Shown in pieces: positions 986 to 52,808 of a DNA stretch of 64,000 bases. The translations under genes were made by a program, and so were the position numbers. Source of the stretch: Carcharhinus amblyrhynchos (lineage: Eukaryota); the NCBI GenBank assembly GCA_965287045.1, contig OZ336879.1, positions 58,962,001 to 59,026,000 on the forward strand, read 5' to 3'. How positions within the stretch are numbered: position 1 is the stretch's first letter; every line of letters starts with the position of its first letter. The notes under the pieces are model-generated. The model had not been told where the DNA came from. It was given only the letters and a program-made list of their open reading frames with translations, and made no database searches.

Positions 986-1294
986 ACGCAGTAAAAAGTC
1001 TGACAACACCAGGTTTCAGTCCAACCGATTTATTTGATAGTAAACTCACTAGCTTTTGAGGTTTCCCTCTTCTTCAGGTGAATGGAGAGTTCTGGCCTCA
1101 GACAGAGCATATAAAGCACAGACTGTCTGTGCTTTACACGCTCTGTCTGAGGCCAGAACTCTCCATTCACCTGAAGAAGAGGGAAACCTCGAAAGCTAGT
1201 GAGTTTACTATCAAATAAATTGGTTGGACTGAAACCTGGTGTTGTCAGACTTTTTACTGTGTTTACCCCAGTCCAACACTGGCATATCCATATC
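986..1294 (+). mobile_element. Non-autonomous Penelope-like element: inverted pLTR palindrome (983-1265, centre 1124) plus ~30-nt unpaired tail
   Basis: Near-perfect ~141-bp arms with a 1-nt loop. The tail ccccagtccaacactggcatatccatatc matches the GIY-YIG-bearing element at 16.8 kb. An 11-bp duplication gagagggataa flanks it at 975-985 and 1295-1305. Confidence 0.88.
1165..1204 (+). ncRNA. Minimal type I hammerhead ribozyme motif (PLE-type)
   Basis: attcac-CTGAAGA-a-gagg(gaaa)cctc-GAAA-gcta-gtgagt. Both core boxes are present, with a 6-bp stem I, a 4-bp stem II with GAAA loop, a palindromic AGCT in place of stem III, and a putative CUA cleavage site. Confidence 0.8.
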
Positions 1295-1351
1295 GAGAGG
1301 GATAAGCCCAGACAGTTCCCTGGCTACACACTAGTTTTCAGTCTGAGTTGT

Positions 1352-4300
1352 TGCAAACCTTGCCAACGTGGTTGCAGGATGGTCATGACTGGGAATTGAA
1401 TATCCAGGGGTATCAAACTGTTTGGAGGGACCGACAGGAAGGTAAGGGAGGTGGTGTGGCTCTGATATTTAAGGATGATATCAGGGTGGTAGCGAGAGAT
1501 GATACAGGTTCTATGGAAAAAAGGTTGAATCCATTTGGGTGGAAATTAGAAATAGTAAGGAGAAAAAGTCACTGATAGGTGTAATCTATATGCCACCAAA
1601 TTATGACATCAAGGTGGGACAAGAAATAACTGATGCATGTAAAAATGGTGCAGCAATTATCGTGGAGGATTTAACCTACATATCAATTGGTCAAGGTAGC
1701 CTTGAGGAATAGTTCATAGAATGTATCCGCGATAGCTTCCTTGAACAGTATGTAATGGAACCGACGACGGAGCAAGTTATTCTAGACCGGGTCCTGTGTA
1801 ATGAGACGGGAATAATTAATGATCTTGCAGTTAGGGATCCTCTTGGAAGAAGTGATCAAAGTATGTTTGAATTTAAAATACAGATGGAGCGTGAGAAAGT
1901 AAAATCCAATACCAATCTTGTGCTTAAACAAAGGAGACTATAAAGGGATGAGAGAGGAGTTGGCTAAGGTAGACTGGGAGCCAAAACTTTATGGTGGGAC
2001 AACTGAAGAACAGTGAAGGATTTTCAAAGTGATTTTTCAGTGCTCAGCAAAAATATATACCAGTGATAAGGAAGGACTGTAGAAAGAGATAATCAGCCAT
2101 GGCTATCTAAGGAAATAAAGGAGGGCATCAAATTGAAAGAAAATGCATACAAAGTGGCAAAGATTAGTGGGAACCTACAGGATTGGGAAATCTTTAAAGG
2201 CCAGCAGAAAGCCATGAAAAAAACTATAAAGAAAGGTAAGATGGATTATGAGAGTAAACTAGCTCAGAATAAAAATAACATAGCAAAAGTTTCTACAAAT
2301 ATGTAAAATGAAAAAGAGTGGCTAAAGTAAACATTGGTCCTTTTAGAGGACAAGAAGGAGGATGTAATAACAGGAAATGAGAAAATGGCTGAGGCATTGA
2401 ACAGGTATTTTGTGTCAGTCTTCACAATGGAAGACACAAATAACAAGCCAAAAATTGATAAGAGGAAGGCTATGGCAGGTGAGGACTTAAAACTATCATT
2501 ATCACGAAAGAGGTAGTGTTGGGCAAGTTAATGGGGCTAAAGGTAGATATGTCTCCTAGTCTGATGGAACGCATCCCAGGGTACTAAAAGAAATGGCGGG
2601 GGAAATAGCAAATGCACTAGTAGAAATTTACCAAAATTCACTGGACTCTGGGGTAGTTCCTGCAGATTAGAAAACAGCAAATGTAACACCACTGTTTAAA
2701 AAAGGAGGAAGACAAAAAGCAGGTAACCATAGGCCCATTAGCTTAACTTCAGTAGTAGGAAAATGCTTGAGTCGATCATCAAGGAAGAAATAGCGAGACA
2801 TCTGGATATAAATTGTCCCATTGGTAAGACACAGCATGGGTTCATAAAGGGCAGGTCACGTTTGACTAATTTGGTGGAATTCTTTGAGGACATTACATGT
2901 GCAGTGGACAATGGGGAACCTATGGATGTGGTGTATCTGGATTTCCAGGAGGCATTTGACAAGGTGCCACACGAAAGACTGCTACATGAGATAAAGGTGC
3001 ACACTGTTACGGGGTAATGTATTAACATAGAGGATTGGTTAACTAACAGAAAGCAAAGAGTGGAGGTAAATGGGTGTTTGGCGATCAGTGACAAGTGGTG
3101 TGCCTCAGGGATCAGTGTTGGTACTGTAATTGTTTACGATTTACGTAGATGATTTGGAGTTGGGGACCAAGTGTGGAGGCATTGGAAAGGGTGCAGAGGA
3201 GGTTTACCAGGATGTTGCCTGGTATGGCGGGAAGGTCTTATGAGGAAAGGCTGAGGGACTTGAGGTTATTTTCATTAGCGAGAAGAAGGTTACGAGGTGA
3301 CCTAATTGAGGTATACAAGATGATCAGAGGATTGGATAGGGTGGACAGTGAGAGCCTTTTTCCTCAGATGGTGATGGCTAACACGAGGGGACACAGCTTT
3401 AAATCAAGGGGTGGTAATTATAGGACGGATGTCAGAGGTAGGCTGTTTACTCAGAAGGTAGTAAGGGCGTGGAATGCCCTGCCTGCAGCAGTTGTGGACT
3501 CGCCAACTTTAAGGGCGTTCAAATGGTCGGTGGATAGGCATATGGATAACACTGGAATAGTTTAGGTTAGAGGGTCATTAGATTGGTTCCACTGGTCGGC
3601 ACAACATCGAGGGCTGAAGGGCCTGTACTGCGCTGTTGTGTTCTATGTTCTAAGTGTAGTGTGTCAACATTCGCAGATGAAACTAAATTGGGTGGAAGAG
3701 CAAAGTGTGCTGAGGACGCTGAAAGTCTGCAAAGGGATATAGATAATCTAAGTGAGTGCACGAGAGTCTGGCAGATGGAGTACAATGTTGGTAAATGTGA
3801 GGTCATCCATTTTGGTAGGGATAACAGCAAAATGGAGTATTATTTAAATGGTAAATTGCAACATGCTGCTATACAGTGGGACCTGAGTGTCCTTGTGCAG
3901 GAATCTCAAGGAGTTGGTTTGCAGGTGCAGCAGGTAATTAAGAAGGCAAATGGAATTTTGTCCTTCATTGCCAGAGGGATGGAGTTTAAAACAGGGAGAT
4001 TACGTTGCAGCTGTATAAGGTACTGGTGAGGCCACACTGGAGTACTGTGTACAGTTTTGGTCTCCTTATTTGAGAAAGGATATACAGGCAATGGAGCGGA
4101 TGCAGAGGAGATTCACTAGGTTGATTCTGGAGTTGAGAGGGTTGGCTTATGAGGAGAGATTGAGTAGACTGGGGCTCTTCTCATTGGAATTCAGAAGAAT
4201 GAGGGGAAATCTTATAGAAACATATAAGATTATGAAGGGAATAGATAAGATAGAAGCAGGGAAGTTGTTTCCACTGGCAGGTGAAACTAGAATTAGTGGG

Positions 4301-4594
4301 CATGGCCTCAAAATGAGGGGAAACAGATTTAGGACTGAGCTGAGGACTTCTTCACACAAAGGGTTGTGAATCTGTGGAATTCCCTGCCCAGCGAAGCAGT
4401 TGAGGCTGCTTCATTAAATGTTTTTAAGGCAAGGATAGATAAATTTTTGAACAGTAAAGGAATTAAGGGTTATGGTGAGCAGGTGGATAGGTGGAGATGA
4501 GTCCAGAAAAAGATCAGCCATGATATTGAATGGCGGAGCAGGCTGGAGGGGCCAGATGGCCTATTCCTGCTCCTAGTTTTTATGTTCTTATGTT
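1352..4594 (+). mobile_element. CR1 LINE ORF2 (APE endonuclease + RT), degenerate, with 3' tail
   Basis: Motifs RDRQEGKGGGVAL, VVYLDFQEAFDKVPH, FADETKLGG and QRRFTRLI, followed by a ttatgttcttatg tail. Confidence 0.95.
3175..3651 (+). mobile_element. 5'-truncated CR1 (different subfamily) nested inside the RT of the larger CR1
   Basis: Open C-terminal frame (ALERVQRRFTRMLPG...VRAWNALP), a tgttctatgttct tail, and TSD aagtgt at 3169-3174 and 3652-3657. The host frame resumes after it. Confidence 0.92.
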
Positions 4595-4605
4595 ATCTTT
4601 ATATG

Positions 4606-4730
4606 ACTTCACCTTGCGACGTCACTGGCAATGGGCATGGAAAATCAGGAAATGCAATTATTCTGGAGAGAATCACCTGCCCCAATTCTCTCCGGATTTT
4701 CTACCCACATAGCGGGCTGAAAATCACCCC
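4606..4730. mobile_element. Short MITE-like repeat (GGAAAATC/GATTTT-type termini, possibly Harbinger-related)
   Basis: Internal inverted motifs ggaaaatc..ggagagaat / attctctccggatttt, ending in gaaaatcacccc like other short repeats in the window. Confidence 0.45.
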
Positions 4731-5710
4731 TGATGTCTCTGCTGGATTGATGACTTCCAGTTCATGTCAAGTTGCTGCTCACATTCAATCTGGAAGATTT
4801 CACATGACTTTGTTGCATTCTCAACTTTCTTCATAGGGAGTGCTGCTTTTGACAGCATGTCAGCAATGTACATCTGTTTCCCTTGCCAGAATGTCACATC
4901 CAGATGATATCTTTGTAAACAAAATAACATTCTTTGGAGCAGAGGAGCAGTTGTGAAAAATGCTTTGAAGTGGCCTGTGATCAGCGTCCGCTGTTACTTT
5001 GCCTCTCCTGAGCAGGTATTGATGAAAATGTTCATAAGCACAAGCAATAACCAGGCACGCTTTCTCAATCTGAATGTAGCATCGGTCAGTTTGCGTTAAG
5101 GTCCTAGATGCAAATGCAACTGATTGTCCATGCTGCATTAGGGTTGTTCCAAAACCTGTCTTGGGCAAGATGACATCATCATTGACATAACAGTTCTTCA
5201 GCACTGGCGTTTTTCGTTGCTAGGTGTTTGATTTTGGTGAATGCTGCTTCTTGTTCTGTGCCTCCAAGACCACTGCACATCCTTGACCGTGATCCTAAAA
5301 AATGGTTCACATTCTGATTACAAATCAGGCAAACATTTTGTTAAATAGTTCATGAATCCACAAATCATTGCGCTGCTTTCTCATCTAGCTGTTGCTACAT
5401 CGCTGCCTCAGCTCTCACCTTGTCAGGATCTCATAGAATCCCTACAATGCAGAAGGAGGCCATTTGACCTATTGAGTCTGCACCAACAATGATCCGATAA
5501 TGTTGAAGATGTTTTGCTGTCAGTAAATGACACGTGTACTTGACTTTAGGCATCTTCAATTGCAATTCCTTTCTCATTCAGCTTTTGACAAGCTCCCTCC
5601 AGCAGTCATATTAAATTCTGATCACGGTCAGTTATGGTTTCTTTCATTCTGTCTCCACATCCATTAATGAGTAGATCGTTCAATATGGCTTTCACTCCAG
5701 GAGATTATTA
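4731..5710 (-). mobile_element. Gypsy pol remnant (RT-RNase H), interrupted by a SINE tail at ~5430-5490
   Basis: ORFs contain AFASRTLTQTDRCYIQIEKACL, DHRPLQSIF and GKQMYIADMLSKA, which are typical Gypsy RNase H motifs. Confidence 0.88.
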
Positions 5711-6767
5711 TCGGTTGTTGTAGAGAAATCATGAGTAATCTTCCCATTGGCCAGTAATTACAAGTATTTGTGAAAAGTTATTTATAATGCTTATATAAGT
5801 GCTCAGACATGGGTTGAATACTGCAAAAGCTATTTGCAAAGGTACATTAAATAGGGGAGCAGATCTGGTATCTCTGCATTTGCCACAGGGTAGCATCAAT
5901 CTCAGGAGACTTGCTAAAAGTGGGGGAAATGTGGGGTTCTTGCTGGGAGAAAGTTGGGAGTTAATAGTTGTGCCAATCCAAACACAAGGTTTGGAGATGA
6001 ATGTAAGAAACCCAGATATAGATTTGTGAGAAACCCAGTAATGACCTAGGTCATTGTCATAAAGATTCAATGTTGATCATATGAAACCTAGAAGTAAACA
6101 TAGGTTTAGGGGTTTGCTGCAAGAATCAGAGAACTAGAGGTTTGAAATTTGCTGGGATTTTTCAGTCCCACGAGTGAGTTTTCCGGCAGTGGATTTCCTG
6201 GCAATGCAGCCCACTTTTAGCAAGTGTCCTGAAATTGATGCTACCCTGTGGCAAATGCAGAGATACCAGTGCTGCTCCCCTATTTAATATACATTTGCAG
6301 GTAGCTTTTGCAGTACTCAACCCATGTCTGAACACTTGTATAAGCACAACAAATAACTTCTCTGAATATTTGTAATTCCATTGGGAAGAATTCTCATGAT
6401 TTCTCTACAACAACCAACAACAATAATCTCCTGGAGTGGAAGCCATTGTGAATGATCTATTCATTAATGGATGTGGAGACAGAATGGAAAAACCATAGCT
6501 GAGCATGGTCAGATTTAATACACTGCTGGAGGGAACTTGCAAAAGCTGAATGAGAAAGAAATTGCAATTGAAGATACCTGAAGTCAAGTACACATGTCAT
6601 TTACTGACAGCAAAACGGCTTCAACATTGTCAGATCATTGTCCGTACAGACTCAATGGGCTGAATGGCCTCCTTCTGCATTGTAAGGATTCTATGAGAAC
6701 CTACAAGGTGAGAGCTGTAGCAATGATGTAGCAACCGATAGATGTGAAAGCAACACAATTTGTGGAT
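5356..6767. repeat. Large local inverted duplication (arms 5356-5924 and 6210-6767, ~285-bp spacer)
   Basis: Reverse-complement match by eye along ~560 bp. The ORF track shows the same pseudo-peptide on both strands (5799+ and 6162-). Confidence 0.95.
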
Positions 6768-7111
6768 CTATACGCCTTTGTCTTCAGCAGGACTAGGAGA
6801 TCTCACTTGTGGCCACGGGGGTAGTGGAAATCTCAGCCAGGTATGGGTTAGATGGGTATTAGAATTAGATGACTCACAGCTTAAGAATGATTAAGCCTAG
6901 CTGTGCTCACTTAGAAGAAAAAAACTAAACTGAAGCAAGAGGCTCTAAGCATGTGAAAAGTTATTTTAAAGCTTTGTTACATGGTCCTGTTACAAAAACT
7001 CGTTACATTAATAGAAGCTTATGTATCATCTCTGCATACCTCTTCTACGCTTCTGGTGAGTCTGTATCATCTGTCAGAAAGGATATAGCCAGGAATGGTG
7101 ATGAGTCTTAA

Positions 7112-7420
7112 AGTTTAAAAGTTGAAGTTTATTTTATTGGTCACAATCAGGCTTATATTCACATTGCAATGAAGTTACTGTGAAAATCCCCTAGTCACCA
7201 CACTCCGGCACTATTCGGGTACATTGAGGGAGAATTTAGCAAGACCGATGCACCTAACCTACACATCTTTGGACTGTGGGAAGAAATCGCAGCACCTGGA
7301 GGAAACCCACAAAGACACAGGGAGAAAGTGCAAACTCCACACAGTTTCCAAGCCGGAAATCAAACCCAGGTTCCTTGTAACTGTGAGGCAGCAGTGCTAA
7401 CCATTGTGCCACCATACCAC
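7112..7420 (-). mobile_element. V-SINE (HE1-like), tail type B
   Basis: tRNA-like head, V-domain (gtgggtttcctcc..ggtgct), and tail tcacagtaacttcattgca..tgtgac..aataaa on the minus strand. Confidence 0.9.
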
Positions 7421-7664
7421 TCCAAGTCTGTGCTCTTATCTGAAAGATGTAATTCTGTAGACATGACTATGTCAAGGTACAGTCAGGTTAATCTGTAGTG
7501 GGCTTTCCTCATGTGTTAGTGAGGAAGACACTGCAGTATTGAATGGGATGAGTGTGTCTTTGTCGTATCTGAATTTGGCGCCAAACTCAAAATCAGGTGG
7601 TCTATCCAGTTCAATTCTTATTACAATTTCTCATCGTAATTTTGATGAAATTAATGACTTTTGA

Positions 7665-7905
7665 GGCTATTTCAGAAGATAATTAAGAGTCAATCATGTT
7701 CCTATGAATCTAGAGTCACACGCTAGCCAGACCAGGCAAGGGAGGTTTCTTTTTCCATAAAGTGCATGAATGTACAAGTAGGTTTTTATGATAATGCAGT
7801 AGTTTTATGGTTGCCTTTACTGAGATTATTCTTTTATTCCAGAATTGTTAACTGAATTTAAATTTGCTAGTGCAATGGCTTGATTTGAACTCAAGCTTGC
7901 AGACT
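7665..7905 (-). mobile_element. Degenerate tRNA-derived SINE (family also at 16.7k, 42.1k, 50.3k, 51.8k)
   Basis: Shares gagtcaa..tagagtcaca..gccagaccagg and attccaga..gaatttaaatt..gatttgaac with the other copies. Confidence 0.7.
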
Positions 7906-8449
7906 ATTTGTTTTAATTATTTTGTTTAATTATAAAAGAGGTCAGATTCAGGTTGTTGCAGAGACGCCCGAGGTATTTAGAACATTGGTTGGAATGATTC
8001 ACAGATGGTTCAGCCATTATGGATTGTTTACTTTGGCATTTTGTATTATTTTTGAAATAATGGCAGGAATTCTACATTCTCTTATCAGTGGGTTTGTAGA
8101 CAGGGATGAGTGTAAAATATTATGGATGGGCATCCCAGTGGATTCCCACCCACCTTGGCCTCCCAGCAATTTCACATTGTGACTTGTGCCATCCAGCCTT
8201 GTTCCACTTGAGGCCCTTCAGTGGCCCATTATTGACCATGCACCCAACACACCCCCCCCCACCCCCCCCCCCCCCCACCCCCCGCAGCCAGTTAATGCTT
8301 GCTGGGAGTGTTAAATAGCTGCAGGGAGCATTGGTGAGAATGTCTTTCCCATCTTGGAATGGCAGGGCTGGAAACCTGCCATATTAAAAATCCAGGCCTA
8401 GTGTCGTTCCTTTGATCCTAAGTGGTTCACCACATTGCGATGGGATGGG

Positions 8450-8600
8450 ACAAAAACAGAAAATGATGGAATAGGGCCAACGTTTTGTGTTTGGATGACA
8501 TTGGCTCTATTCTGTCTCCACAGATGCTGTCAGATCTGCTGAGTTTTTCCATCATTTTCTGTTTGTTTCAGATTCCAGCATCAACAGAATTTTGCCTTTA
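8450..8600 (+). mobile_element. Hairpin fragment of a second PLE-like non-autonomous family
   Basis: acattggctctattctgtctccacagatgctgtcaga..ctgctgag..ttttcc is shared with 52071-52291 and 29650-29750; it has terminal inverted arms. Confidence 0.7.
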
Positions 8601-9852
8601 TCTTTGTGATATAATGGGGTTTCATTCTACATGCCAGATTGATGGCCCTAATTGGACAGACAACGCATAAGTTGCCTCCAAATTGAGGGGGCAATTCTCC
8701 ATTCAAGATAGCAAAGTGAGGACTGAAAAGCATGGATATTTCTGTCTTTAGATGTTAGGTATGAATCAGTCTTCCCTGCCTTCATTTAATTTCTGGTCTC
8801 CCTCTGCAGTAAGTCTAGCAAGAGCTGGTGGTCAGGCATAGTGCACTGCTGTCTCACAGGGAGGATGCCCTGAGTGCAAAACAGGGGAAACTTCTTTGCA
8901 TCTGCTCCTTGCAGCGGAATATTCACTCCTCCAACTATCAAAGAGTACAGTTCGCCCACTGATTCTAAATTTGTGTTTGCACATTGGATTTCCTTTCTTA
9001 TGCTTTGAGTTGTCAATTCTTTCACCATATATTGTATTTGTTCTGACTTCACTAGACACAATCATTTACATTTAAGTAACTGGAAGCTTTTAAACAAAAT
9101 AAGGGGTGGGAGCGTTGTTAATTGGGTAACTCCCAAAATCACGCATTGGTATTGCAATGCACAATTACCTTGCACACATTCCAGAGATGCAGGCAGAAGG
9201 TAAACTTCATGATGCCTGCTAATTGTAATGAATGGGAATTGCAGAAGATTGGTTATTCCATACTGCAAGTTGTTAAGGCAAAGGAACTGGTTTAGTCAGT
9301 GGAGTTCTCCTCATCACAGTCAAAGATCTAAAATTGTCCTTGTGAATTGGTGCTGGGGTGAAAACTCAGGAATCCAGGGAAATGGATTTTTGGCAGATGT
9401 GTTTGAAATTCTGCAGGGTGGACCATTGTTGGAGAAGATCAAATCAGAAGAACCTTTGGAGCCTGGAAAATGCATGGGATTACGGAAATAGGGCAGGGGG
9501 GAGGATCTGGGTGGAAAACTTTTTCAGAGAGTCAATGCAGACTCAGCAGGCCAAATGGCCTCTGAAAATCCCTGCACTGTAGGGATTCTATGATTCTATT
9601 TTAGAATTCCAAGACGAAAACTGGAATCTCTCATCGAAAAGATAGAGTTGTTTCAAAGAGATTGACTGACTCAGTATTTACTGACGTTTAGATGGGTTGC
9701 TGAGTAATCCATTGGTTGTGTCTTGATCTTATCTGTGTTAGACACTCGTTTGCTTCTTAATTCGTGTATAGCTCATATTAACACTGTTGGAACATAAGAT
9801 AGATATTATAATTTGTTTTATCGTTCTGATCTCATATAGCAACCTAAAAACC

Positions 9853-10421
9853 ATGGAGTACTGTGTGCAGTTTTGGGCGCCGCACCTGCGCAAGGATATT
9901 TTGGCCCTGGAGGGAGTGCAGAGGAGGTTTACTAGGCTGATACCGGAGTTGAGGGGATTGAGCTATGAGGAGAGGCTGAATAAACTAGGCTTGTACTCGT
10001 TAGAGTTTAGAAGAATGAGGGGAGATCTCATTGAGACGTATAAGATGATGAATGGGATGGATAGGATAGAGGTGGAGAGACTCTTCCCGCTCAAAAAAGA
10101 CAGTAGGACTAGGGGGCACAGCCTCAAGATAAAGGGGAGGCGGTTTAGAACGGAGTTGAGGAGGAACTTCTTCACTCAAAGGGTGGTGAATCTCTGGAAT
10201 TCTCTGCCCGTTGAAGTGGTGGAGGCTGCCTCGCTAAATATTTTTAAGAAGCGGGTTGATGGGTTCTTGATAAGAGAGGGGATTAAGGGTTATGGGGAGA
10301 GGGCGGGAAAGTGGAACTGAGCCACAACAGATCAGCCATGATCTTATTGAATGGCGGGGCAGGCTCAAAGGGCTAGATGGCCTACTCCTGCTCCTATTTC
10401 TTATGTTCTTATGTTCTTATG
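9853..10421 (+). mobile_element. Young 5'-truncated CR1 (open ORF2 C-terminus, (ttcttatg)3 tail)
   Basis: Uninterrupted EYCVQFWAPHLRKD...GYGERAGKWN, retained CpGs, and an octamer tail. Confidence 0.95.
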
Positions 10422-14595: not shown

Positions 14596-16868
14596 TGTCC
14601 AAATCCAGATAGTGTGCCAAGGTGAAGGACGTATTGATGATGTTCCTGCAGAATTGTTGCTATGATCCTTTTTGGTAATGGAAATTCCAGTGCCTGCTGC
14701 TAATTTTCCAACCTTAGCCACAACAGAAAGGAATTTTGACATTTTTGGCAAAGTGTTTTCTCAGGTGGAAAAAGCCAAGGTAGCTGGCAGGTTTTCCTGT
14801 AGTATTTTTAAACACTTCGCCAAAAAAAAGGGGCTGGTCACATATCATGCTGGCGGGACGAGGTCTAATTGACCAGCAACTTATACTTTTATACAATCAA
14901 GATGTAAATTAATAAAAATTGAATCCCCCTACCCCCTACAGAACTACCAACTGCCCATCTATCCCCCACCATGGAACTCACCCCCAGAACTTCCCGCACG
15001 GAACTCCAGACCCTACCACCACCACAGAGCCCCCTCCACCCCATCCCACCTTATGAAACTGCAACAAACCCCAACGCAACACCCTTTGCCCTTGGAACAC
15101 TCCCCTGGCACTGCAGACTGCAGAGAGCAGTCTGGCACTGCCATTGAATCTAAAAACAACAGCAATGAAAAAACTGCTCTCTTGTTTCCTTACTTTTAAA
15201 TGTGTAGTATTAATAGGTGCCGTTCCATGGTAATATGCTATGAATAAAACCTTGGTTTTATTGGTGACTATGAATGAATGAAAGCAAGCATATTTTGCTC
15301 TAATGATTGTGAAAGGCTTAGCAATAACTTTATAACTGCCAGTCACAATCCTTAAGAGGAATTCTTCTTATCTTTCACCCACTTCTGCACGGTGCATACT
15401 ATACCAGATGAGTGATTATTTTAGGCAACGCAGTTGAAAAAATCAATAATAGAGTGGCAAAATACTGATCATTTCAGAAATGACTTAAAAAGTAATATTA
15501 CCTTAACGCATGTACAATAATAAATCAGTAGCTTCATAAACAGTCCTATGTACATATGGATGAAAGACAAATGTTTTCAAGCACAGACCTAATTGAATTT
15601 TGTGAGCCCGTGAACCCTGGGTGAGGTGGGTGGATTGTGTTGCGGGGGAAAGGCTAGGGATCCTACCTGCTGGAGGTTCAAATCACAAGTTTAATCACAT
15701 ACTGACCATGGTTTTCCAAACATTTAAATAAATTGTCTGAAAAATGTGGGCAGTGAGCATTGATTTTATTTATGTAAGCTTCTTGGGGGCAAGGTTACTT
15801 GCTGAGAATGAGTACGCAGAATTAATTTCAATAAAAGAATAAAGGTGAGAAAAAAATGAAAGAAGTGATTGGATTTTGAATTTTTATTAATTAAATATTT
15901 TGATTGTTATTTTTTAATTGCTTTAATTGCACAAAATTAAAATTGTGGCATTTCACCTTTGTATGACAGTCATGTTGTGTGGAGCCTTCTGCTCAGTGTT
16001 GGCAGGCTAGAGGGAGAAAGATGATTGCCTATAAGTGCAGCTGGCACTGGGTACTGCCATTGTTACATGGGACCTTAAAAGTCAGGGACTTTCAGCATTT
16101 GGAGCAGTGCTGAAGAGCCAGGCTGGTGGGAAAAGCTTGGACTGGACAGAAAATGATGTGGGAGAGCACGGAAAAACTTGAGTAATGGGAAATCACTGAA
16201 ACCAAATGGGAAAGGCGTTGAAGTTTCACTGTTATCCTTGGATTTAGAACAGTACAGAGGTAAGGATGTGAGTAAGACATTTACTTTAAAGCTGATTCAT
16301 TCTTCAAGGATGTTCTTTGTTTTAAGTGTTAGTTTTGACCTGATGTTATTGTGTTGTATGAAAATAAAAAAAACAGCAAGAAGAAATTGTACATGAGAAA
16401 CTAACCTTCCCCAAGATTGACAGGAAATGTGCACTTTGAATAGATTAATTAATAGATATGGCTAGAGAGAAATATTATTCACTAATATTAGTATCAATCA
16501 TTAGTGTAAATCAGTACTCAGAGCTTTAAAATTACAATTGAATTTAATTTTAATCCATATATATCTTCACATAAGTTGCACAACAATTTGTCCAATTACT
16601 CACATGGGAAGTTTTTAAGTCCCCTTCAATACTTTGAATATTCAGTCATTCCAGAAACCCCGCACCATAGTTACATGATTCTGGAGCTGTTTTGCATTCC
16701 AGGCCTCATTTTAATATGATCCTTTCTTTAAATTCATTTGTGGGACAAGGCTGTTGCTAGCTGGCTAAGATTTATTGATGTGGAGATGCCAGCATTGGAC
16801 TGGGTTAAACATAATAAGGAGTCTCACAACATCAGGTTAAAGTCCAGTAGGTTTATTTGGTAGCACAA

Positions 16869-16910
16869 GCCACTAGCTTTCGGAGAGCTGCCCCTTCATC
16901 AGGTAAATGG
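16869..16910 (-). ncRNA. Minimal hammerhead ribozyme motif in left pLTR
   Basis: Reverse complement reads ccatttac-CTGATGA-a-gggg(cagct)ctcc-GAAA-gcta-gtgg. Confidence 0.7.
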
Positions 16911-17570
16911 GAGTTCTGTTCACAAACAGGGCACATAAAGCCAAAACTCAGTTTACAAAATAATGGTTGGAATTTGAGTCTTTACAGGTAATCAAGTCTG
17001 AAAGGTACAGACAATGTGAGTGGAGAGAGGGTTAAGCACATGTTAAAGAGATGTGTATTGTCCCCATTCAGGACAGTTAGTGACATTTTGCAAGTCCAGG
17101 CAAGTCGTGGGGGTTACAGATAGTGTGACATAAACCCAAGATCCCAGTTGAGGCTGTCCTCATGTGTGGAACTTGGCTATCAGTCTCTGCTCAATGACTC
17201 TGCTTTGTCGCGTGTCATGAAGGCCGCCTTGGAGAATGCTTACCCAAAGATTGGAGGCCAAATGCCCATGACCGCTGAAGAGTTCCCCAACAGGAAGAGA
17301 ACACTCTTGCCTGGTGATTGTCGAGCGGTATTCAACTACCTGAAATGCTGCAGGAAAGGATGTCCCGAGGCATAGTACACTGGGGAGATCATGCAGACAC
17401 TACGACAATGGATGAATGATAATACACATCTCTTTAACCTGTGCTTAACCCTCTCTCTGCTCACATTGTCTGTATCTTTATGATTTGATTACCTGTAAAG
17501 ACTCGCATTTCAACCATTATTTTGTAAATTGAATTTGTGTTTTTATATGCCCTATTTGTGAACAGAACTC

Positions 17571-17611
17571 CCACTTACCTGATGAAGGAGCAGCACTCTG
17601 AAAGCTTGTGG
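17571..17611 (+). ncRNA. Minimal hammerhead ribozyme motif in right pLTR
   Basis: ccacttac-CTGATGA-a-ggag(cagca)ctct-GAAA-gctt-gtgg. Confidence 0.68.
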
Positions 17612-18029
17612 TTTGTGCTACCAAATAAATCTGTAGGACTTTAACCTGTTGTGAGACTTCTTACAACATTTATTGACCACCCCTAGTTGTCCTTGTTCAG
17701 AGGGCAATTGAGAGTCAACCACAATACTGTGACTCTGGAGTCACACGTAGGCCAGATGAGGTAAGGACATTAATGAACAGATAGGTTTTTCAGACAATTG
17801 ACAATAGTTTTATGGTCATCAATAGATTCTTAATTCCAGATATTTTTTATTGAATTCACATTCCACCAACTGCCATGGTGGGATTTGAACTTGTGTCCCC
17901 AGAACATTAGCCGAGTTTCTGGATTAATAGTCTAGTGATAATACCACTAGGTCATTGCCTCCTCCTCACATCAGGAAACAGAATAATTTTTATAGCCTGC
18001 CATGCCTTAAAAGCCTTCCCTCAGTTCCC

Positions 18030-27340: not shown

Positions 27341-27364
27341 TCTGAAGCCACTCTCAGATATGGA

Positions 27365-27460
27365 ATTGATGCAGAAAATGTTGGAAATATTTGGTAGGTC
27401 AGGCAGCATTTGTGGAGAGAAGAATTTATGTTTCAGGTCAATAACTCTTCATCAGAGCAG
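27365..27460 (-). mobile_element. PLE family-2 pLTR fragment with degenerate hammerhead
   Basis: Reverse complement reads CTGATGAagagttattgacctGAAAcata..tctctccacaaatgctgcctgacct. Confidence 0.65.
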
Positions 27461-29644: not shown

Positions 29645-29750
29645 GAAGGTTCTGAGAGAAGATCAGTGACCAGAAACCTTAACTCTATTTCTCTCTCCGC
29701 AGATGCTGCCTGACATGATGAGTATTTCCAGCATTTTCTCTTTTTATTAT
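29645..29750 (+). mobile_element. PLE family-2 pLTR fragment, decayed hammerhead
   Basis: ctgagagaagatcagtgaccagaaaccttaactctatttctctctccgcagatgctgcctgac..gagtatttccagcattttc. Confidence 0.6.
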
Positions 29751-30164
29751 AGGTGGATAATTGGCATTGGAACTATTTCCAATTAGCATATGGCAACTAT
29801 TTGAATGCAGTTGTTGTTCAGCAAATTAGGCTTTCATGAATATTTGATGTTCTAACACAAGGAAAATGAAATGCAAAAAAGTAATCTGATCTGCCACTAT
29901 TGCTCCTTACACAACTATATAATGTAAGTTTTATTACAGTATCTATTACTAACATCTGTGTGAAACTATGACAGATATCTAAGGTTGTAGAATCTCTTTG
30001 ATCACAACAGGAGAAAAAGGACAAATCAATCAAGCAATGACATAGAACAGCAAATAATAGAGGAAGAAATTGCATTTATATACTGCCTTTCAGGCCCTCG
30101 AGGACACTCCAAAATGCTTCAAAGGCAATTAATTACTTCTAAAGTGATTCACAGTTCTAATTAT

Positions 30165-38985: not shown

Positions 38986-38991
38986 TCATAG

Positions 38992-42694: not shown

Positions 42695-42950
42695 AGAAGA
42701 ACAAAGAACAAAGAAAATTACAGCACAGGAACAGGCCTTTTGGCCATCCAAGCCTGCACCAACCATGCTGCCTGACTGAACTAAAAGCCCCTACCCTTCC
42801 AGGGACCAGATCCCTCTATTCCCATCCTATTCATGTATTTGTTCAGACATCCCTTAAAACTCATTGTTGTGTTTGCTTCCACCACCTCCCCTAGCGGCGA
42901 ATTCCAGGCACCCACCATCCTCTGTGTAAAAAATTTGCCTTGTACACCTC
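42695..42950 (-). mobile_element. CR1-type 3' end
   Basis: An (aagaacaa)n tail followed by cagcacaggaacaggcc..gaattccaggcacccacca. Confidence 0.8.
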
Positions 42951-44714: not shown

Positions 44715-45075
44715 TGTTACGACCAGTCCCCATGTGAGAGTGCCAAATCTGTTAACCCAGGTCAGAACACTCAAATTGTTATGCCTGGGCAAGAAGGGAT
44801 GAACAGGCTTCCTCTCTTTATTTATTTTGTCACCATCACCTCCCATTTTCTCCACCAGAGATGGCAATTAGTTTTTGTATGCTTTAGTAATATCCTTGGC
44901 TGGAAACAGGGTGTGGTTCCATTGTCTCTGAGTTTCACCCACGTGCAATTCAGTCAGTGACAGAATTTACATCTTCAGCTAACTTTGTCTTGTATGTCCA
45001 TTTCTAAAAAAAACTCACAGGTCTTACTTAATATTCAATACTTCCAAATGTAATTTTTCCTTCATTATAATGACA
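44715..45075. mobile_element. Solo LTR (TG...CA, 4-bp TSD)
   Basis: Begins tgttac and ends atgaca, with gtag at 44711-44714 and 45076-45079. The CR1 host reads through once it is removed. Confidence 0.8.
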
Positions 45076-45318
45076 GTAGGGATACAGTAGCAGACACTTT
45101 AAAGAGATATTTTAAATACTCAAAAAACTTACATTCCACTGAGAAAAAAAACACACCAAGGGAAGAACCCACCCATATGTAGCTAATTAAAGAAGTTATA
45201 AATAGTATCAAATTGAAATCAAGGTATACAATTCTGGAGGATGAGTGACATGTCAAAGCTTGGGCAGAATGTAAAGAACGGCAAAGAATCACTAAAACGT
45301 TAATAAGGAGGGAGAAAT

Positions 45319-45594
45319 GAGAATCATATTATAGAACATTCTCTCTTCCATCAGGAAAAAAATACAAAAGTCTGAGATCACATACTAGATGACTCAAAAA
45401 CAGCTTCTTCCCTGCTGCCATCAAACTTTTGAATGGACCTATCTCGCATTAAGTTGATCTTTCTCCACACCCTAGTTATGACTGTAACATTCTGCACTCT
45501 CTTCTTTCCTTCTCTATGAATGGTATGCTTTGTCTATATAGTGCGCAAGAAACAATACTTTTCACTGTATACCAATACATGTGACAATAAATCA
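45319..45594 (+). mobile_element. Rex1/Babar-like LINE 3' end
   Basis: LPSG..YKSLRSHTR.LKNSFFPAAIKLLN, followed by the tail tacatgtgacaataaatcaa. Confidence 0.8.
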
Positions 45595-47624
45595 AAAAAT
45601 AGAGTACAAGAATAATCCAGCAAAAAGTTATAAACAAATAGTAATAGTTTCTACAGATATTGAAAAAAGAGAAGAGTAAGTAAAGTGAGCGCTGATCCTC
45701 TAGAGAGTGAGAATTTGGAATTCATTATGGAAAATAAGGAAATGATGGATGAATTGAACAGATATTTTAGAGAATACAAATTACATCCCAGAAATAATTT
45801 TGAATCAGGAGGTGAAATAGAGGGAGGAATTTAAATCAATTACTAAGAAAATTATTAAAACTAAAAGCTGACAAGTCCGCAGACACTGATTGACTTCATT
45901 CTCGGTCTTAAACTGAGTGTTTGCTGATAAAGGAGTAGTTTATTGGTTTTAATTTTTCAAAGTTCCTGAGATTCTGGAAATGTTCCATCAGATCGGAAGA
46001 TAAGGAATGTGACACCCCTCTTCAAGAAAGGAGGGAGACAGAAAACAGAAAATTACAGGCCAGTTAGCTGAACATCTGCCATAAGAAAATTGCCAGAATC
46101 TATTATTATGAAAGTTATAGCAGGGCTTTTAGAAAATTGCAATGGAAGCAGGCAGAGTCAACATGGTTTTGTGAAAAGGACATCATGTTTGACTAATTAT
46201 TGGAGTTATTTGAGGAAGTAACAAGCAATGTAGGTAAAGGGGAACCTGTGGATGTGCTGTATTTAGATTACTAGAAGGCATTTGACAAAGTGCCATGTCA
46301 AAGGTCACTATGCAAAACAAGAGCTCATGGTGTAGGTGTTAGCAATGTTAGCATGGATAGAGGATTGCTTAATTAAAAGAGAGTAGGCATAAATGGGTCA
46401 TTTTTGGGTTGGCAAGATGGTACTAGTGGAGTGCCATAAGTATCAATGCAGGGGCCTCAACGGATTACAATTTATACTGATAAATTGGCTGAAAGGACTC
46501 AATGTATGTTGTTAAATTTGGTGACACAAAGCTCAGAAAGTAAGTTATGAATATAACACAATGAGTCTGCAAAGGAACGTAAGATTAAGCAAGTGATCAA
46601 AAATATGGCAGACAGGGCAGAAGGTCCTTGTCCACTTTGGAAGGAAGAATTGAAAAGTAGTACATTATTTAAATTGAAAGAGACTGAAGAACTCCATAAT
46701 ACAGAAGGATCTAAGTGGCCTAATGCGAAAGTCAGGAAACATTAGTGTGTAGGTATAGCAAGGATTAAGAAGAAAAATGGAACATTGTCATTAATTGCAG
46801 AAAAGGGAATGAAATATAAAAGTAGGCATAATTTGCTGCAGTTTTACAGTACATTGGTGAGATCACATTAATAGCACTATGTACAGCCTTGATCTCCTTA
46901 TTTATGAAAGGATATAAATGCAGATAAGCAGGGAAGAGGAGGATCACTTCACTGATAGCTAGAATAGGGGTGTAATCTTACGAGGAAGGGTTGGACATGC
47001 TGAACCTGAACTTGAGTTTAGAAAATTAAGGGGCGATCTTACTCAAATATATAAGATCCTGAGCAGACCTGGTAGGATGGATATTGAACGGATGTTTCCC
47101 CATATAGGAGAGTCAAGAACGAGGGAACACAGTGTAAAAATCAGGGATCTCCCTAAGATAAGAAGATTATTTTTTTCTCAGAGGATTTTGAACCTTTGGA
47201 ATTCTCGTCCTCAGTAAGTAGGAGAGGCATGATCTTTGAATATTTTAAAAGCAGAGGTAGATAGATTCTTGACTAACAAGGGAGTCAAAGATTATTGGAA
47301 TAGGCAAAATGTGGAATTGAGATCACAATCTGATCAGCCATGATCTTATTGAATGGTGGAGAAGGCTAATGGCTTAATTCAGTTACTAATTCATATGTTC
47401 ACATGTAATTAATTTTCAGTCTGGTGATGCATTAAACTGCTGGTTGAAGTTTTATTTTTTGTGTTATATAAGTATGTCATTCTAAATTGTTAATGTTGTT
47501 TGAAGTACTTTCATTACTTTCCCATTGCAAAGGAGGCACCAGAACAAAAGGGAGCAGTACTTTTACCAGACAGCAATCTTTCTAAAAGCGCTAAGCCTCA
47601 ACGATAGCACGTATGTGACCATCA

Positions 47625-47750
47625 GTTACCATGGCAATGACCTCATGGCATCTATAAAAAGGAAAAGGTTCTCATTTCATTATTGTATTGATAGAATTGG
47701 AATAAGGAAGCAGAATAATGCAAGTTAATGTGCAATTGCCTGGCAGCAAC
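47625..47750. promoter_or_regulatory. Candidate RFX X-box pair
   Basis: GTTACCATGGCAAT (47625-47638) differs only at the last base from GTTNCCATGGNAAC. TTGCCTGGCAGCAAC lies at 47736-47750. Both are in non-repeat sequence. Confidence 0.45.
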
Positions 47751-47859
47751 CACAATCACAACATCAACAATTTACATTTATGTAGCACTGTTAATACAAA
47801 AGAATGTCCCAAGGCACTTCAATGGGCCACTTTAAAACAAAATTAAATACTGAGCTTGG

Positions 47860-48420
47860 TCAAAATCTTTGAATAGGTTATCCTCTCCCAAATCCATGCC
47901 CACTTTGCCCTGAACTGTTTGAATCTCTCTTATTTGGTACTGCCACTGTCACTGTACCAAAACACCTGTAATCAAAGTCACAGCAACATATGTATCAGTG
48001 AGAAAGGTAAACTTTCCCTCCTCATTCTTATCAACCATCCACATCCTCTGACATGGTTGACCACACCATCCTCTGCACTGATGTCTAGCTGGGAGGGGCA
48101 GCTCTCATCTGGTTCCATTCTTATCTATCTAATTGAATTCAGAGTCTCACTTGCAATGGCTCCTCTCCTAGTCCTGCACCTTTCCCTCTGGTATTCCCCA
48201 AGGATCTTGGCCTCCCTCCTACTTCTCATCTATACACTGTCCACAGCCACATCATTCAAAAGCAAAGCAAACGCTGACCCACAACTTTACCTCAGTGTTA
48301 CTGCTAAATTATCAGACTGCTCATCCAACATTCAGTAAAGGACAGGGAGGATCTTCTGCCAATTAAAAATTGGGAAGACTGTAGTCACTGTTTTCCCTTG
48401 TACCAATTCCATCCCTATTG
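47860..48420 (+). mobile_element. Old L2-like LINE RT fragment
   Basis: ggtattccccaaggatcttggcctccctcctacttctcatctatac (GxPQGS.LGP.LF.IY-like), then a decayed ADDxQLY motif. Confidence 0.6.
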
Positions 48421-48782
48421 CTGGTATAACAATCTTGACAGGGGAACTGTAAACAAAAATATCCAAATTTATTGAATGACCCTCAAATGAGGAAATTATC
48501 AACAAGATTACACTTCCTGCAGATTTTGATTTAACATGAATCAAAACCAATGCAAAGTAAACATGAATCAAGTGGGCTGTTTTGTTTGGGATGGTCTTAT
48601 TGGTGCCACACTCATCCAGTCAAGTGGGAGTATTGCATCATAGTCCTGACTAGTGCCTTATAGATAACTGAGAGATTAGGAACCGCATTGCTCAGATAGA
48701 TTTCCCAATCTCAGATCTGCTCTTGTAGGCACAGGATTTATATGGCTAGTCTGCTTAAATTTCTGATCAATGGTGACTACCC

Positions 48783-48893
48783 GCCCCCAAGGACATTGAT
48801 GGTCAAGAGTTCAACTACAATAATGCCATTGCACCACCCCCCAGCCCCCAGGATATTGATGGTCAGGTATTCAACTACAATAATGCCATTGCA
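48783..48893. repeat. 60-bp-period tandem duplication within a LINE family B fragment (48.56-49.02 kb, minus)
   Basis: ccccaaggacattgatggtcaagagttcaactacaataatgccattgca is repeated with few changes 60 bp downstream. Confidence 0.9.
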
Positions 48894-49887
48894 TGTCATT
48901 GATTTCTTCACCTGTTGTGGATAGTCATTGCCTGGCATTTGGTGGCATAAATTTTGCCTGTCACTTATCAGGCCAAGCCTAAATTTTGTCCAGTTCCTGC
49001 TGCGTAAAAGCATGCAGGTAGTTGAATTTTCATTACACTCGTCTTTCCTGTCCTGTTTAACTCATTAAACTACTTCTAGCACTATAAGCAGGAATGTGGC
49101 ACTGCAGTCCTCCTGCTCAGCAACCCATGTATTTTTGTTCTCAGTGGCAGGCTCCTTCCTCCCATCAACAGGGGAGTGTATCTCCCTGCATGCTCTTACA
49201 GTCAGCAACATCAGAGGGAGGCATCTGTGAAGTGAGTCACAGTTTTGCCACGTGGGATTCCACAACGCCAGTTGCTTCCTCTTTTTCTCCATATCGAACT
49301 GTCATCCTTGCAGTGACCCTTGAAACAATTCAGTTAAAATTGACTCGAGCGAATCATTGTCACATTCGCTCTTTCAAATTGGTCACAAAACCAAGAGTTC
49401 AGTATGAATGCAGTGTTTGGCTTAAAACTGCCACTGGCAGGCATGTTGCATTCTCTTCTGAGCTCATTGTGTACCTCCCACAGTGTTGTCACAGTAAAAT
49501 TTGCCCCAGCATGTGAAATTGGTCCATTGTTAATTGAAATCTGATTCTGAATAACAATCAATGAGGAAGTTTGAGTTTTTCATAGCTTCCCACCCCTCAC
49601 ATGCTGTGCTGTAATCATGTTCATTTCATATGAATGTTAAATTCTAAGTTGGGAACAGATCCTTTAAAACAACATGGTTTATTTGTTTTTGCTGCCAAGC
49701 ACTTGCAAGAAATGATCCCCTCTCACTACAGTTGACAAAAAAGACAAATAAAGAGATATTTAGGATATCTGCAGGTTCTATTTAAGCAGATGCGCTATTT
49801 GTTGCCTAATTTCATTTCCAACCTGCTTTACTATATTTCTGATTCCTTTCAAATTACCAGTCAATAGCTGCCTGAATGAGTAAAAAA

Positions 49888-50168
49888 TAAAATTTATTTA
49901 TTAGTCACAAATAAGGCTTACATTAACATTGCAATGAAGTTACTGTGAAATGCCCCTAGTTGCCACACTCTGACACCTGTTTGGGTCAATACACCAAACC
50001 AGCACATCTTTCAGACTGTGGGAGGAAACTGGAGCACCCAGAGAAAACCCACGCAGACACAGGGAGAATGTGAAAGCTCCACACAGACAGCGACCTAAGC
50101 CGGGAATCGAACCTGGGTCCCTGGTACTGTGAGGCAGTAGTGCTAACTACAGTGCCACCTAGTGCCAC
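49888..50168 (-). mobile_element. V-SINE, tail type B
   Basis: tttatttattagtcacaaataaggcttacattaacattgcaatgaagttactgtgaaa...gtagtgctaactacagtgccac. Confidence 0.9.
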
Positions 50169-50719
50169 CCAGTCAGACTAATGTATTGTCCAGCAGGGTC
50201 AGAATAAGCATAAACAGGGCTGGACTATCCCTTCATTCTTTCATTAGATGTAGTATTGCTGGTATTTGCTGCACATCTTGAATGGCCATTTCAGAGTCAG
50301 CCACATGCTGTGTGTCTGGAGCAGTGTAGGCCAGACCAGGTAAGGATGGCAGATTTCCTTCCCTAATGTGGTACTGGTGAAGCAGATATGTTTTTACAAT
50401 AGCCCATGCTTGTTGTCATGTCACCATTACTGAGACTAGCTTTATATTCCAGATTTATTAGTTGAATTTAAATTCCACCAACTGTTGGGGTATGATTTGA
50501 TTCCATGTCCCCAGAGCTTTAGCCTGGGCTTCAGGACTATTAGCAACATTACTACTACATTGCTGTCTCTTATTATTATGTCTTCAAATACAAAGTACTG
50601 GGCCATGAAATTGTGCTTACAGATCCAGATTGCTCATGAACTCCATTAGCGTGCAGCTTAGGGGTGACCACCAACATTGTATCACCATTCATCATCTCCA
50701 GCACTGCAATTTCTAACCA

Positions 50720-51220
50720 TGAAATTCCTACAGAGCAGAAGGCCATTCAGCCCATCAAGTCTGTATCAAATCTCTGAAACAGCATTTTACCAATGCCCAC
50801 ATCCCCACCCTTGCTGTCCTATCCCTGTAACCCTACATATTTACCATGGGTTATCCACCTAACCTACACATCTTAAAACTCTATGGGGCAATTTAGTTCA
50901 GCCAATTCACCTCTCCTGCACATAAGAACATAAGAAATAGGAGCAGGAGTAGGCCATCTAGCCCTTCGAGCCTACTCCGCCATTCAATAAGATCATGGCT
51001 GATCTGAAGTGCATCAGTTCCACTTTCCTGCTTTCTCCCCATAACCCTTAATTCCCCTGTCTATCAGAAACATCTTTGGACCTCTGCAAGGAAACCGGAG
51101 CATCTGGAGGAAATCCACAGAGACATGAGGAGAACGTGCAAACTCCACACTCAAGGACGAAATTGAACCTAGGTCCCTGGTTCTGTGAGGCAGCTGTGCT
51201 AACCACTGTGTCCCCATGCC
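50720..51220 (-). mobile_element. V-SINE (tail A) interrupted by a young CR1 tail (~50921-51070)
   Basis: cataagaacataagaaataggagcaggagtaggccatctagccc is the reverse complement of the 10.4-kb CR1 tail. It sits between the two SINE halves, with a possible short caca/aca duplication. Confidence 0.85.
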
Positions 51221-51824
51221 AACGACAGAAGGAAAATCCAATCTTTAATCTCCTTCATTGGTAGAAGGAATTGATACAATGAAGCATGGAAAAGCAAATC
51301 CTATTTTACAGACCTCACTTCAGCTTTTCTCTTCATTCTTGATCATCACAGGAAGAATTCTAGGGTCAAATTCTGCTGTGGATGTTTGTTTTAAAACAAC
51401 ATAAATTTGCAAATATTTAAAAAGAATACAGATTGCTGGCATTGAAGGATATGTACTAAAGCCATGATAATAGCTGAGGGGGGGGTGGAATTCATATCAA
51501 GTTAAATATTTACACTCACTGTGGTGAGGAAGTGTCTGTTCGTTTGAATGCATCCTAGGGTTTTGGTGGGGCTGTTTGTCAACATTGGACCTGTAATCAC
51601 GTTCAGTGAGAGTTCTTTAGAATCTGATCCCAACCATTATCAAAAAGACTGGCTGAATGCTTCAATTTTTATTATTATCAATTCTGACAGGCGTGTTGGT
51701 AAAGGCATTGGGGACAGTGCCCCCTCTGCTTGCTGGAGAAGAATTAACAGAGCTAAAGGATGGGCAGTCGGGTTTTGAATGGAGGGCATGACCTTGGCCT
51801 GGAGCTGAAGGTTGCTGGATTTTT

Positions 51825-52350
51825 CATTATCTATTCATGGAGCATGGGTGTCGCCCATTCCTAGTCAACCAGATTGCTGTGGCTCTGGAGTCACATGTAG
51901 GCCAGACTACGTAAGAACGGTAGATTTCCTTCCTACACAATAAACCAGATGGGTTTTTCCAACAATCGACACTGGCTTCATCAGTAGATTCTTAATTCCA
52001 GATTTTTTTTATTGAATTCAAATTCCGCCAACTGCCGTGGCAGGATTCAAACCTGGGTCCTCAGAACATTTCAAAAAATGCTGGTAAATCTCAGCAGGTC
52101 TGACAGCATCCATGGAAAGAGAAAAGAGCCAATGTTTCAAGTCTGGATGAACCTTCACCAGGGCTAGATCATCCAGACTTGAAACATTGGCTCTATTCTC
52201 TCTCCACAGATGCTGTCAGAACTGCTGAGATTTTCCAGCATTTTCTATTTTTGTTTGCGATTCCAGCATCTGCAGTATTTTACTTTATTCCCAGAACATT
52301 AGCTTGAGTTTTTGGGTTAATAGTCTGCCAGTAATACCACTGGGCCTTCA
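51825..52350 (-). mobile_element. tRNA-derived SINE split by a PLE family-2 hairpin
   Basis: The halves join at the duplicated cagaacatt. Confidence 0.85.
52071..52291 (+). mobile_element. PLE family-2 inverted-pLTR hairpin element
   Basis: Arms 52075-52150 and 52169-52244, an unpaired ~45-nt tail, and TSD cagaacatt at 52062-52070 and 52292-52300. The minus strand has a decayed CTGGTGA..GAAAC motif. Confidence 0.82.
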
Positions 52351-52714
52351 GTACCCTTTAGTTTTGTAATTAAAAGAAAGGCAATGTCAAACATTACTGA
52401 TCAGCCCGGGAGAGGGCAAAATGTTATGTTTTTCCTATGATGTTAACAAGATAGGAAATGGAATGTCTGCCCATTAGCTTTGAAATAAATCAGGTTCACG
52501 ATTCCTCAGAACTCCAAAAGATCCCCAAACTGAAACAATAACCAATGTTTCCACAGATGCTATTTGTCAACATTCCACCTTAAACCATTGATCAGATCAC
52601 ACTCAATGAGAGTTCTTCAGAATCTGATCTCAACCATCACCAAAAAGACTGGCTGAACACTTCAATTTTTATTATTCAATTCCAGCCTCTAGTCTCTCTC
52701 CCCTGGCTAATAGC

Positions 52715-52808
52715 AAAAGAGGAAGGGGCAGCGCTCCAAAAGCTTGCGACTTGTGCGACCAAATAAACCTGTTGGACTTGAACCTGGTGTTGTGAGACTT
52801 CTTACTGT
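52715..52808 (+). mobile_element. PLE family-1 pLTR fragment
   Basis: gaaggggcagcgctccaaaagcttg..ccaaataaacctgttggacttgaacctggtgttgtgagacttcttactg. Confidence 0.85.

Follow-up and report, generated by a model that had tools for sequence, protein, structure and literature searches.

In a 64-kb stretch of the genome of the shark Carcharhinus amblyrhynchos (contig OZ336879.1; hereafter the window, along the whole of which all positions are numbered), we have analyzed a set of small hammerhead motifs. These are very probably minimal type I hammerheads located in the end repeats (pseudo-long terminal repeats, pLTRs) of two families of Penelope-like elements (PLEs), most of them surviving as decayed stubs, in which the element RNA likely begins at the motif and the reverse transcriptase (RT) likely starts 65 or 97 bases past the predicted cut site, running through the uncut motif. 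The motifs are genuine copies of the small hammerhead known from PLEs, which is a mostly ordinary finding.

Hammerhead motifs in the window

The eight motifs listed in an original prediction, made from the letters of the window alone, are all present where it placed them. They represent only six insertions, and the copies are not independent. The pattern CTGAnGA..GAAA matches 21 times in the window against 7.6 expected, a number reached in none of 100 shuffles. A strict descriptor, demanding both core boxes, a minimum of 3 bp in each of stems I and II, a palindromic 15.2-16.2, U16.1, and H17, is passed by three of the eight (1166+, 16869-, and 17574+), all of family 1 and all inside inverted repeats, with no hits in 50 shuffles. 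The features of the window are as follows:

975-985 and 1295-1305 (+): left and right copies of the 11-bp target-site duplication of the inverted family 1a insertion
986-1124 (-): family 1a short arm, tailless, which stops some 65 nt past the predicted cut site
1045-1082 (-): minimal hammerhead of family 1a in which CpG decay has turned G12 into A; predicted to be inactive
1125-1294 (+): family 1a long arm, with a TATA-like box, the hammerhead, and a 97-nt leader that ends at the start codon of the open reading frame (ORF) in full-length units
1166-1203 (+): minimal hammerhead, family 1a, descriptor-intact, with stem I of 6 bp, stem II of 4 bp, and AGCT; predicted cut after 1198
8455-8600 (+): another family 2b stub, which lacks the hammerhead core and has a short piece in inverted orientation; absent from the original prediction
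16772 and 17670: possible 7-bp duplication of the inverted family 1b insertion
16779-17350 (-): family 1b long arm, with a decayed GIY-YIG C-terminus (17117-17350), 3' untranslated region (UTR), hammerhead, and tail
16869-16907 (-): minimal hammerhead, family 1b, descriptor-intact, stem II of 4 bp including one G-U
17337-17669 (+): family 1b inverted short arm, with a GIY-YIG N-terminus piece (17337-17423)
17574-17612 (+): minimal hammerhead, family 1b, descriptor-intact, the 10.1-11.1 pair being G-U
27341-27460 (-): family 2a stub that keeps its core boxes but has a disrupted stem II and a palindrome decayed to ACAT
29645-29769 (+): family 2a stub with ACCT, a disrupted stem II, and an insertion within the first core box
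52071-52166 (-): family 2b short arm with hammerhead 52126-52166, A6 changed to G
52167-52291 (+): family 2b long arm, cut inside the hammerhead, absent from the original prediction; 9-bp duplication at 52062 and 52292
52720-52811 (+): family 1b stub truncated within the core, with G12 replaced by A and an 8-bp duplication (52712 and 52812)

Three of the insertions are pairs of inverted arms, namely 1045/1166, 16869/17574, and 52126 with the newly found partner arm, flanked by duplications of 11, possibly 7, and 9 bp, respectively. The expectation that the core boxes persist in the better-preserved copies holds for four of the eight motifs, in which both boxes are intact (1166, 16869, 17574, and 27422); the other four are damaged, by the change of G12 to A in 1045 and 52720 (the latter additionally cut inside the core), by the insertion in 29652, and by the replacement of A6 by G in 52126. 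None of the three family 2 copies (27422, 29652, and 52126) has kept stem II unbroken. The site of the family 1a insertion (910-974 and 1306-1347) is a pre-existing hairpin at the start of a remnant of a CR1/L2-type long interspersed nuclear element (about 1300-4600).

Two families of endonuclease-bearing PLEs

The two motif families had been assigned to two distinct PLE families, and in fact both are pLTR ends of endonuclease-bearing PLEs. Family 1 copies continue upstream into an RT plus GIY-YIG frame, the GIY-YIG pieces of the window (17117-17423) being 65-88% identical. An open ORF of 893 amino acids with RT and GIY-YIG was found in five of six fetched family 1 loci; its start codon lies 97 nt past the predicted cut site, and the units stand in tandem with a period of 3,024 bp and a hammerhead at each junction. 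In a profile search, the 893-aa protein matched RVT_1 above the cutoff and GIY-YIG below it (E 0.0004), and it carries DKG, YIDD, and a CX4CxxC linker, the linker being read by eye. A search with the N-terminus of a relative returned 150 matches, many with open frames near 917 codons. Judged from its sequence, family 1 appears to fit Neptune or Nematis as defined in PMC8557442. The linkers read in both families agree with the CX2-5CxxC pattern given there for the Neptune clade between RT and endonuclease.

Many open 893-aa ORFs, some of them in tandem arrays with identical end repeats (e.g., L225, L226, L229, and L230), indicate that family 1 has recently spread. Several annotated shark proteins (P0024, P0026, P0030, P0035, and P0036) contain pieces of this ORF with 63-93% identity, probably fragments of the element that were exonised or wrongly annotated.

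Family 2 also derives from a PLE, one that is older and distantly related to family 1, and its repeat follows a decayed GIY-YIG ORF. One of its copies has a decayed endonuclease end upstream, and, among 29 other loci chosen solely by a decayed endonuclease fragment, 16 have the family 2 tail on the same strand at no more than 700 bp. The longer remnants contain an RT thumb, a CX4CxxC linker (by eye), and GIY-YIG, with Pfam GIY-YIG matches in three of five, all below the cutoff; the protein is 28% identical to that of family 1 (E 1e-23). The RT core motifs were not recovered in these remnants, and no intact family 2 ORF was found, the longest open frame among 150 matches being of 513 codons.

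This lack of an intact ORF, together with the fact that most family 2 copies measure 100-140 bp and begin at stem I, would suit a separate non-autonomous short element, such as a short interspersed nuclear element (SINE), a miniature inverted-repeat transposable element (MITE), or a retrozyme, rather than PLE debris. However, the longer copies run into a pyrimidine-rich 3' UTR and then into the GIY-YIG ORF, the one-sided tail and the inverted arms are like those of family 1, and no family 2 tandem arrays were present among the loci read. The separate short element is therefore largely refuted by the ORF linkage and the remnants, and we regard it as very unlikely. Neither does family 2 behave as a DNA transposon without a conserved core, and its description as a PLE stands. 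The flanks common to four family 2 loci were considered as a possible element body and discarded, since they look like a segmental duplication.

Family 2 copies (e.g., window 52189-52260, L049, and L052) also show three sites resembling splice acceptors, made of a pyrimidine tract plus CAG, one immediately upstream of stem I and the others some 21 and 70 nt downstream of the cut site. The intron of Drosophila Penelope is described in PMC4209133 as ending at the 5' end of helix I.

Copy ends and the start of transcription

The ends of the genomic copies were compared in both families, using for the general survey a grid sample of eighty 10-kb stretches (800 kb) drawn from contigs C1-C31 of the 2.92-Gb assembly. 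The 3' ends are bimodal in both families, near +65 and +97 to +102 from the cut site. Among 56 inverted pairs of family 1a, 52 consist of one long and one short arm, while two have two long arms, and in these the element continues; duplications of at least 9 bp flank 38 of the 56. Family 2 has 12 inverted pairs in the 800 kb, one arm extending 13-44 nt past the other in each. The 5' starts cluster where stem I begins, with 10 of 50 family 1 copies between -37 and -32 and 14 of 50 family 2 copies between -39 and -31 from the cut site, a pile-up possibly inflated by the tendency of local alignments to stop at conserved motifs. A TATA-like box lies 33-36 nt before C3, or 30 nt before stem I, in both families, and is present in most, not all, long copies.

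These positions suggest that transcription from the pLTR promoter begins with the first base of stem I, so that the motif would be the first 40 bases of the element RNA. The two 3' ends may correspond to two internal RT start sites as found in vitro for the PLE of the green anole, where the tail equals the distance between the two (PMC11167929); a one-sided tail has been published for PLEs (PMC8557442; PMC3846280). The RT would start 65 or 97 bases behind the predicted cut site and run through the uncut motif, and cDNAs that reach the capped 5' end would give the common stubs of 100-135 bp. Cleavage itself would need two motifs pairing through the AGCU/ACGU palindrome. As cutting would part the priming sites from the element body, it most likely acts on the mRNA pool, where it would remove the capped leader or trim tandem transcripts, rather than serving to make templates.

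A different role was proposed in PMC4209133, where the hammerhead cuts the template RNA before reverse transcription; in that case it would set the 5' ends of the genomic copies. Two of 50 copies per family do start within 2 nt of the cut site, as such cutting would produce. These counts are no higher than those of the neighboring bins, so that no pile-up at the cut site is seen among the 100 copies, a number too small to exclude a few percent. Moreover, most copies reach beyond the cut site (40/50 in family 1 and 41/50 in family 2), and, in the in vitro system of the anole PLE, ribozyme mutants still insert and uncut RNA is the main substrate (PMC11167929). We therefore consider template cutting unlikely, and favor copying through an uncut motif.

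In subfamily 1a (window 1199-1271 and full-length units), the cut site is directly followed by a splice-donor-like GTGAGT and, some 73 nt further on, just before the start codon, by an acceptor-like end. An intron in this leader is unsupported: no joint appeared in four contig runs mapped on a full-length unit, although contigs cannot show absence, and the other subfamilies have no donor.

The hammerhead fold and its covariation

The boxes CUGAnGA and GAAA, U16.1, and H17 are the majority state in both families, all being intact in 4/8 window copies and in 11/31 family 1 and 3/19 family 2 grid copies. An extra base between positions 9 and 10.1 is A in 28/31 and 12/19 grid copies of the two families, respectively. 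The segment after the core agrees with the earlier description, that is, AGCT in family 1 and ACAT or ACCT in family 2 of the window, ACGT being the form found in family 2 copies genome-wide; the palindromic 15.2-16.2 is GC in family 1 and CG decaying to CA in family 2. Position 16.2 of family 2 grid copies is G in 8/19 and A in 9/19, a mix that CpG decay predicts.

The stem II letters of the original prediction are correct: GAGG/CCTC at 1166+ and 1045-, GGAG/CTCT at 17574+, and GGGG/CTCC at 16869-. As covariation they hold in part, given that the change between subfamilies 1a and 1b is truly compensatory, and is the only such change within the window, whereas GGGG/CTCC is a mere G-U wobble. 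Covariation was then tested by shuffle and slide controls, the shuffles ignoring relatedness. In 37 hand-picked family 1 variants, 90% of the cells pair and both-side changes number 34 against 9.8 in shuffles (0/500).

A set of young family 1 copies was picked by upstream sequence alone, leaving the motif unused, and retained 47 of 60 loci once 13 that were duplicates or already seen had been dropped. Divergence in these copies is 31% in the stem II-loop and 7% in the tail, in the core, and in stem I alike. They carry 24 stem II variants; at least 3 bp are kept in 42/47, and all seven recurrent variants pair. In an earlier set of 48 young copies, 15 of the 18 variants at least two edits away from the commonest still pair, compared with 22% for random edits. 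Stem II of family 1 is a fast-changing spot that keeps its fold, a variability noted in general terms in PMC4209133. The family 2 subfamilies differ by A-U or G-C at 10.1-11.1 and by U-A or C-G in stem I, CpG decay blurring the pattern.

Besides the possible inflation of the stem I pile-up and the disregard of relatedness in the shuffles, several observations weigh against our interpretation. No hammerhead family is among the 18 Rfam matches in the window, up to E 10; the miRNA matches among them were set aside as inverted arms of insertions. The covariation signal of family 1 is that of stem II, stem I barely varying, and an A-C mismatch in stem I of 6/48 young copies means that strict pairing is not needed for a lineage to spread. 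In family 2, where 86% of the cells pair, covariation is marginal (score 0.345 against 0.294, 6/500 shuffles; both-side changes 46/500), and pair 2 of stem I is unpaired in 10/32. Finally, stem II could also stay paired in the absence of selection if the hairpin itself templated mutations while being reverse-transcribed.

The proposal that the RNA structure was selected in the source elements is supported in that stems I and II pair in both families, in whose consensus neither stem is lacking, and covary between source elements; for family 2 it is weakened by the marginal covariation. We infer that selection acts on the source elements and that the genomic stubs decay neutrally, with CpG loss at G12 and 16.2.

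One or two templates per inverted insertion

The variants of stem II also bear on how the inverted insertions arise. A tentative and rather doubtful possibility is that the motif is mainly an RNA dimerisation signal, two element RNAs pairing through the AGCU/ACGU palindrome and each being copied into one arm. In 4 of the 38 duplication-flanked pairs, the arms have different stem II types that recur elsewhere (L010, L015, L025, and one pair in L287), and three further pairs differ at two or more linked sublineage sites (L268, L282, and the other pair in L287); three more stem II differences between arms look like decay and were excluded from this count. Such discordant pairs cannot arise by copying one arm from the other. 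Furthermore, the palindrome is kept in both families with different letters, and a protein dimer has been predicted for the anole PLE (PMC11167929). Nevertheless, stem II is common to both arms (the same or one edit apart) in 31/38 pairs, against 9% for random arms, so that the arms come mostly from one source. Discordant arms are also explained by a single RNA from a mixed tandem array or by later gene conversion, and, of the four clearest cases, three belong to a set that had been selected for resemblance to one arm.

Cofolding of dimers did not single out the double-hammerhead fold and gave no clean double hammerhead. In a fuller scheme, which we regard as speculative and unlikely, the hammerhead would occupy the first 40 bases of the capped RNA in both of two independent families and would also serve for pairing; joined by the palindrome, two RNAs, one per arm, would account for the one-sided tail, the 4-7 discordant insertions among 38, and the fast reshuffling of stem II.

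Genomic load and the host locus

The grid sample contains 56 family 1 and 51 family 2 element ends, against none in a reversed control. Extrapolation gives about 205,000 ends of family 1 (139,000-278,000) and about 186,000 of family 2 (128,000-249,000), together about 390,000. Strict hits number 13 (11 of family 1, 1 of family 2, and 1 unrelated), with none in five shuffles, which extrapolates to about 47,000 descriptor-intact motifs genome-wide (18,000-88,000). The load is therefore large, as anticipated; most copies are decayed, though, as seen from 13 strict hits against 107 ends, and motif counts overstate the ribozyme load about eightfold in this genome. G12 is A in 11/31 family 1 and 7/19 family 2 grid copies with a locatable core, a frequent change because G12 sits in a CpG.

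Across the grid sample (L125-L204), G-to-A changes exceed C-to-T changes at core CpG sites on the motif strand (27 against 11, two sites), an excess counted with the arms unmerged and which may be due to chance. The unrelated hit, at L136:3071-3117 (-), is a descriptor-intact hammerhead-like motif with a 6-bp stem II and an AATT palindrome that belongs to neither family, perhaps representing a third PLE family.

It might also be thought that the dispersed motifs are ribozymes, some of them intronic, which the host has selected to regulate transcripts at this locus. Three window motifs are descriptor-intact, and a CpG-rich stretch with a splice-donor-like end at about 53,000-54,030 is matched by sequencing runs of related organisms. 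However, the density of ends in the window (10 in 64 kb) is an average one for this genome (107 in 800 kb), and the motifs face both strands. The three intact motifs are all located within inverted repeats, whose predicted long duplexes (-259 and -369 kcal/mol) would bury them, hammerhead 1166-1203 being enclosed in a long hairpin with the opposite arm. Pfam revealed no host exon in 169 of the 173 non-repeat frames of the window (the other four overlap scanned frames), with two weak hits below the cutoff. Host selection at this locus is extremely improbable, and the decay of PLE stubs remains our explanation of the dispersed motifs.

The CpG-rich stretch 53000-54030, with its donor-like end on the + strand, lies 200-900 bp from the stubs at 52071-52811 and is likely the promoter and first exon of some gene. 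Elsewhere in the window, 4860-5219 (-) holds an RNase H-like fragment of a long terminal repeat (LTR)-type element (Pfam RT_RNaseH), between the inverted repeats 5356-5924 and 6210-6767.

Comparison with known systems

Minimal hammerheads (min-HHRs) in the pLTRs of metazoan PLEs were described by Cervera and De la Pena in 2014 (PMC4209133), and they occur in Neptune and Poseidon elements of vertebrates according to the same work. Both the class and the arrangement seen here are thus published, and the finding itself is ordinary. The role of PLE hammerheads is still debated (PMC8557442; PMC11167929). We found nothing specific in the literature about PLE hammerheads of sharks, transcription starting at the motif, or insertion from two templates; the supplements of PMC4209133 and of a 2026 preprint (bioRxiv 10.64898/2026.07.22.740005), the latter sampling one chondrichthyan genome, may list sharks. 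This genome contributes material, namely a PLE family that has spread recently, in which many 893-aa ORFs are still open and 47 young copies present at least 24 variants of stem II. With arms tagged by such variants, two questions become directly testable on DNA alone: the position of the RNA start with respect to the motif, and the number of RNAs (one or two) that template an inverted insertion.

The shark motifs have the structural features of the min-HHRs as given in PMC4209133, self-cleavage being predicted only: type I topology, a short stem I, the extra base between 9 and 10.1, G10.1-C11.1, and a palindromic 15.2-16.2. They also resemble them in their high variability within one genome and in occurring mostly as dispersed single motifs from truncated PLEs. 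They depart from that description in the A10.1-U11.1 pair of subfamily 2a and in a stem II of 3-6 bp. The estimated number of intact motifs in the shark exceeds the 4,000 of the coelacanth and the 9,000 of Xenopus reported in PMC4209133, which were counted with another descriptor.

With the canonical C-terminal endonuclease-bearing PLEs of the Neptune type (Craig et al., 2021, PMC8557442; Arkhipova et al., 2013, PMC3846280), the shark elements share the single RT plus GIY-YIG ORF, the CX4CxxC linker, and the tandem units, as well as an inverted 5'-truncated copy, a tail of 30-40 bp at one end, a TATA-like box plus initiator in the pLTR, and target duplications of about 9-15 bp. Unlike in Neptune-type elements, the shark tail ends at the start codon and not inside the ORF. 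In the Poseidon element PAc of the green anole (Frangieh et al., 2024, PMC11167929), two RT starts downstream of the hammerhead likewise define the tail and the uncut motif is read through; PAc differs in lacking the Cys linker, as does its clade, and in having an ORF that starts in stem II, whereas the shark ORF starts 97 nt after the cut site. The non-LTR retrozymes of animals described in the 2026 preprint also have type I hammerheads derived from PLE pLTRs. In contrast to their tandem monomer arrays, the copies in the window are single or inverted stubs with duplications, and the tandem units found elsewhere in the shark genome hold the full ORF.

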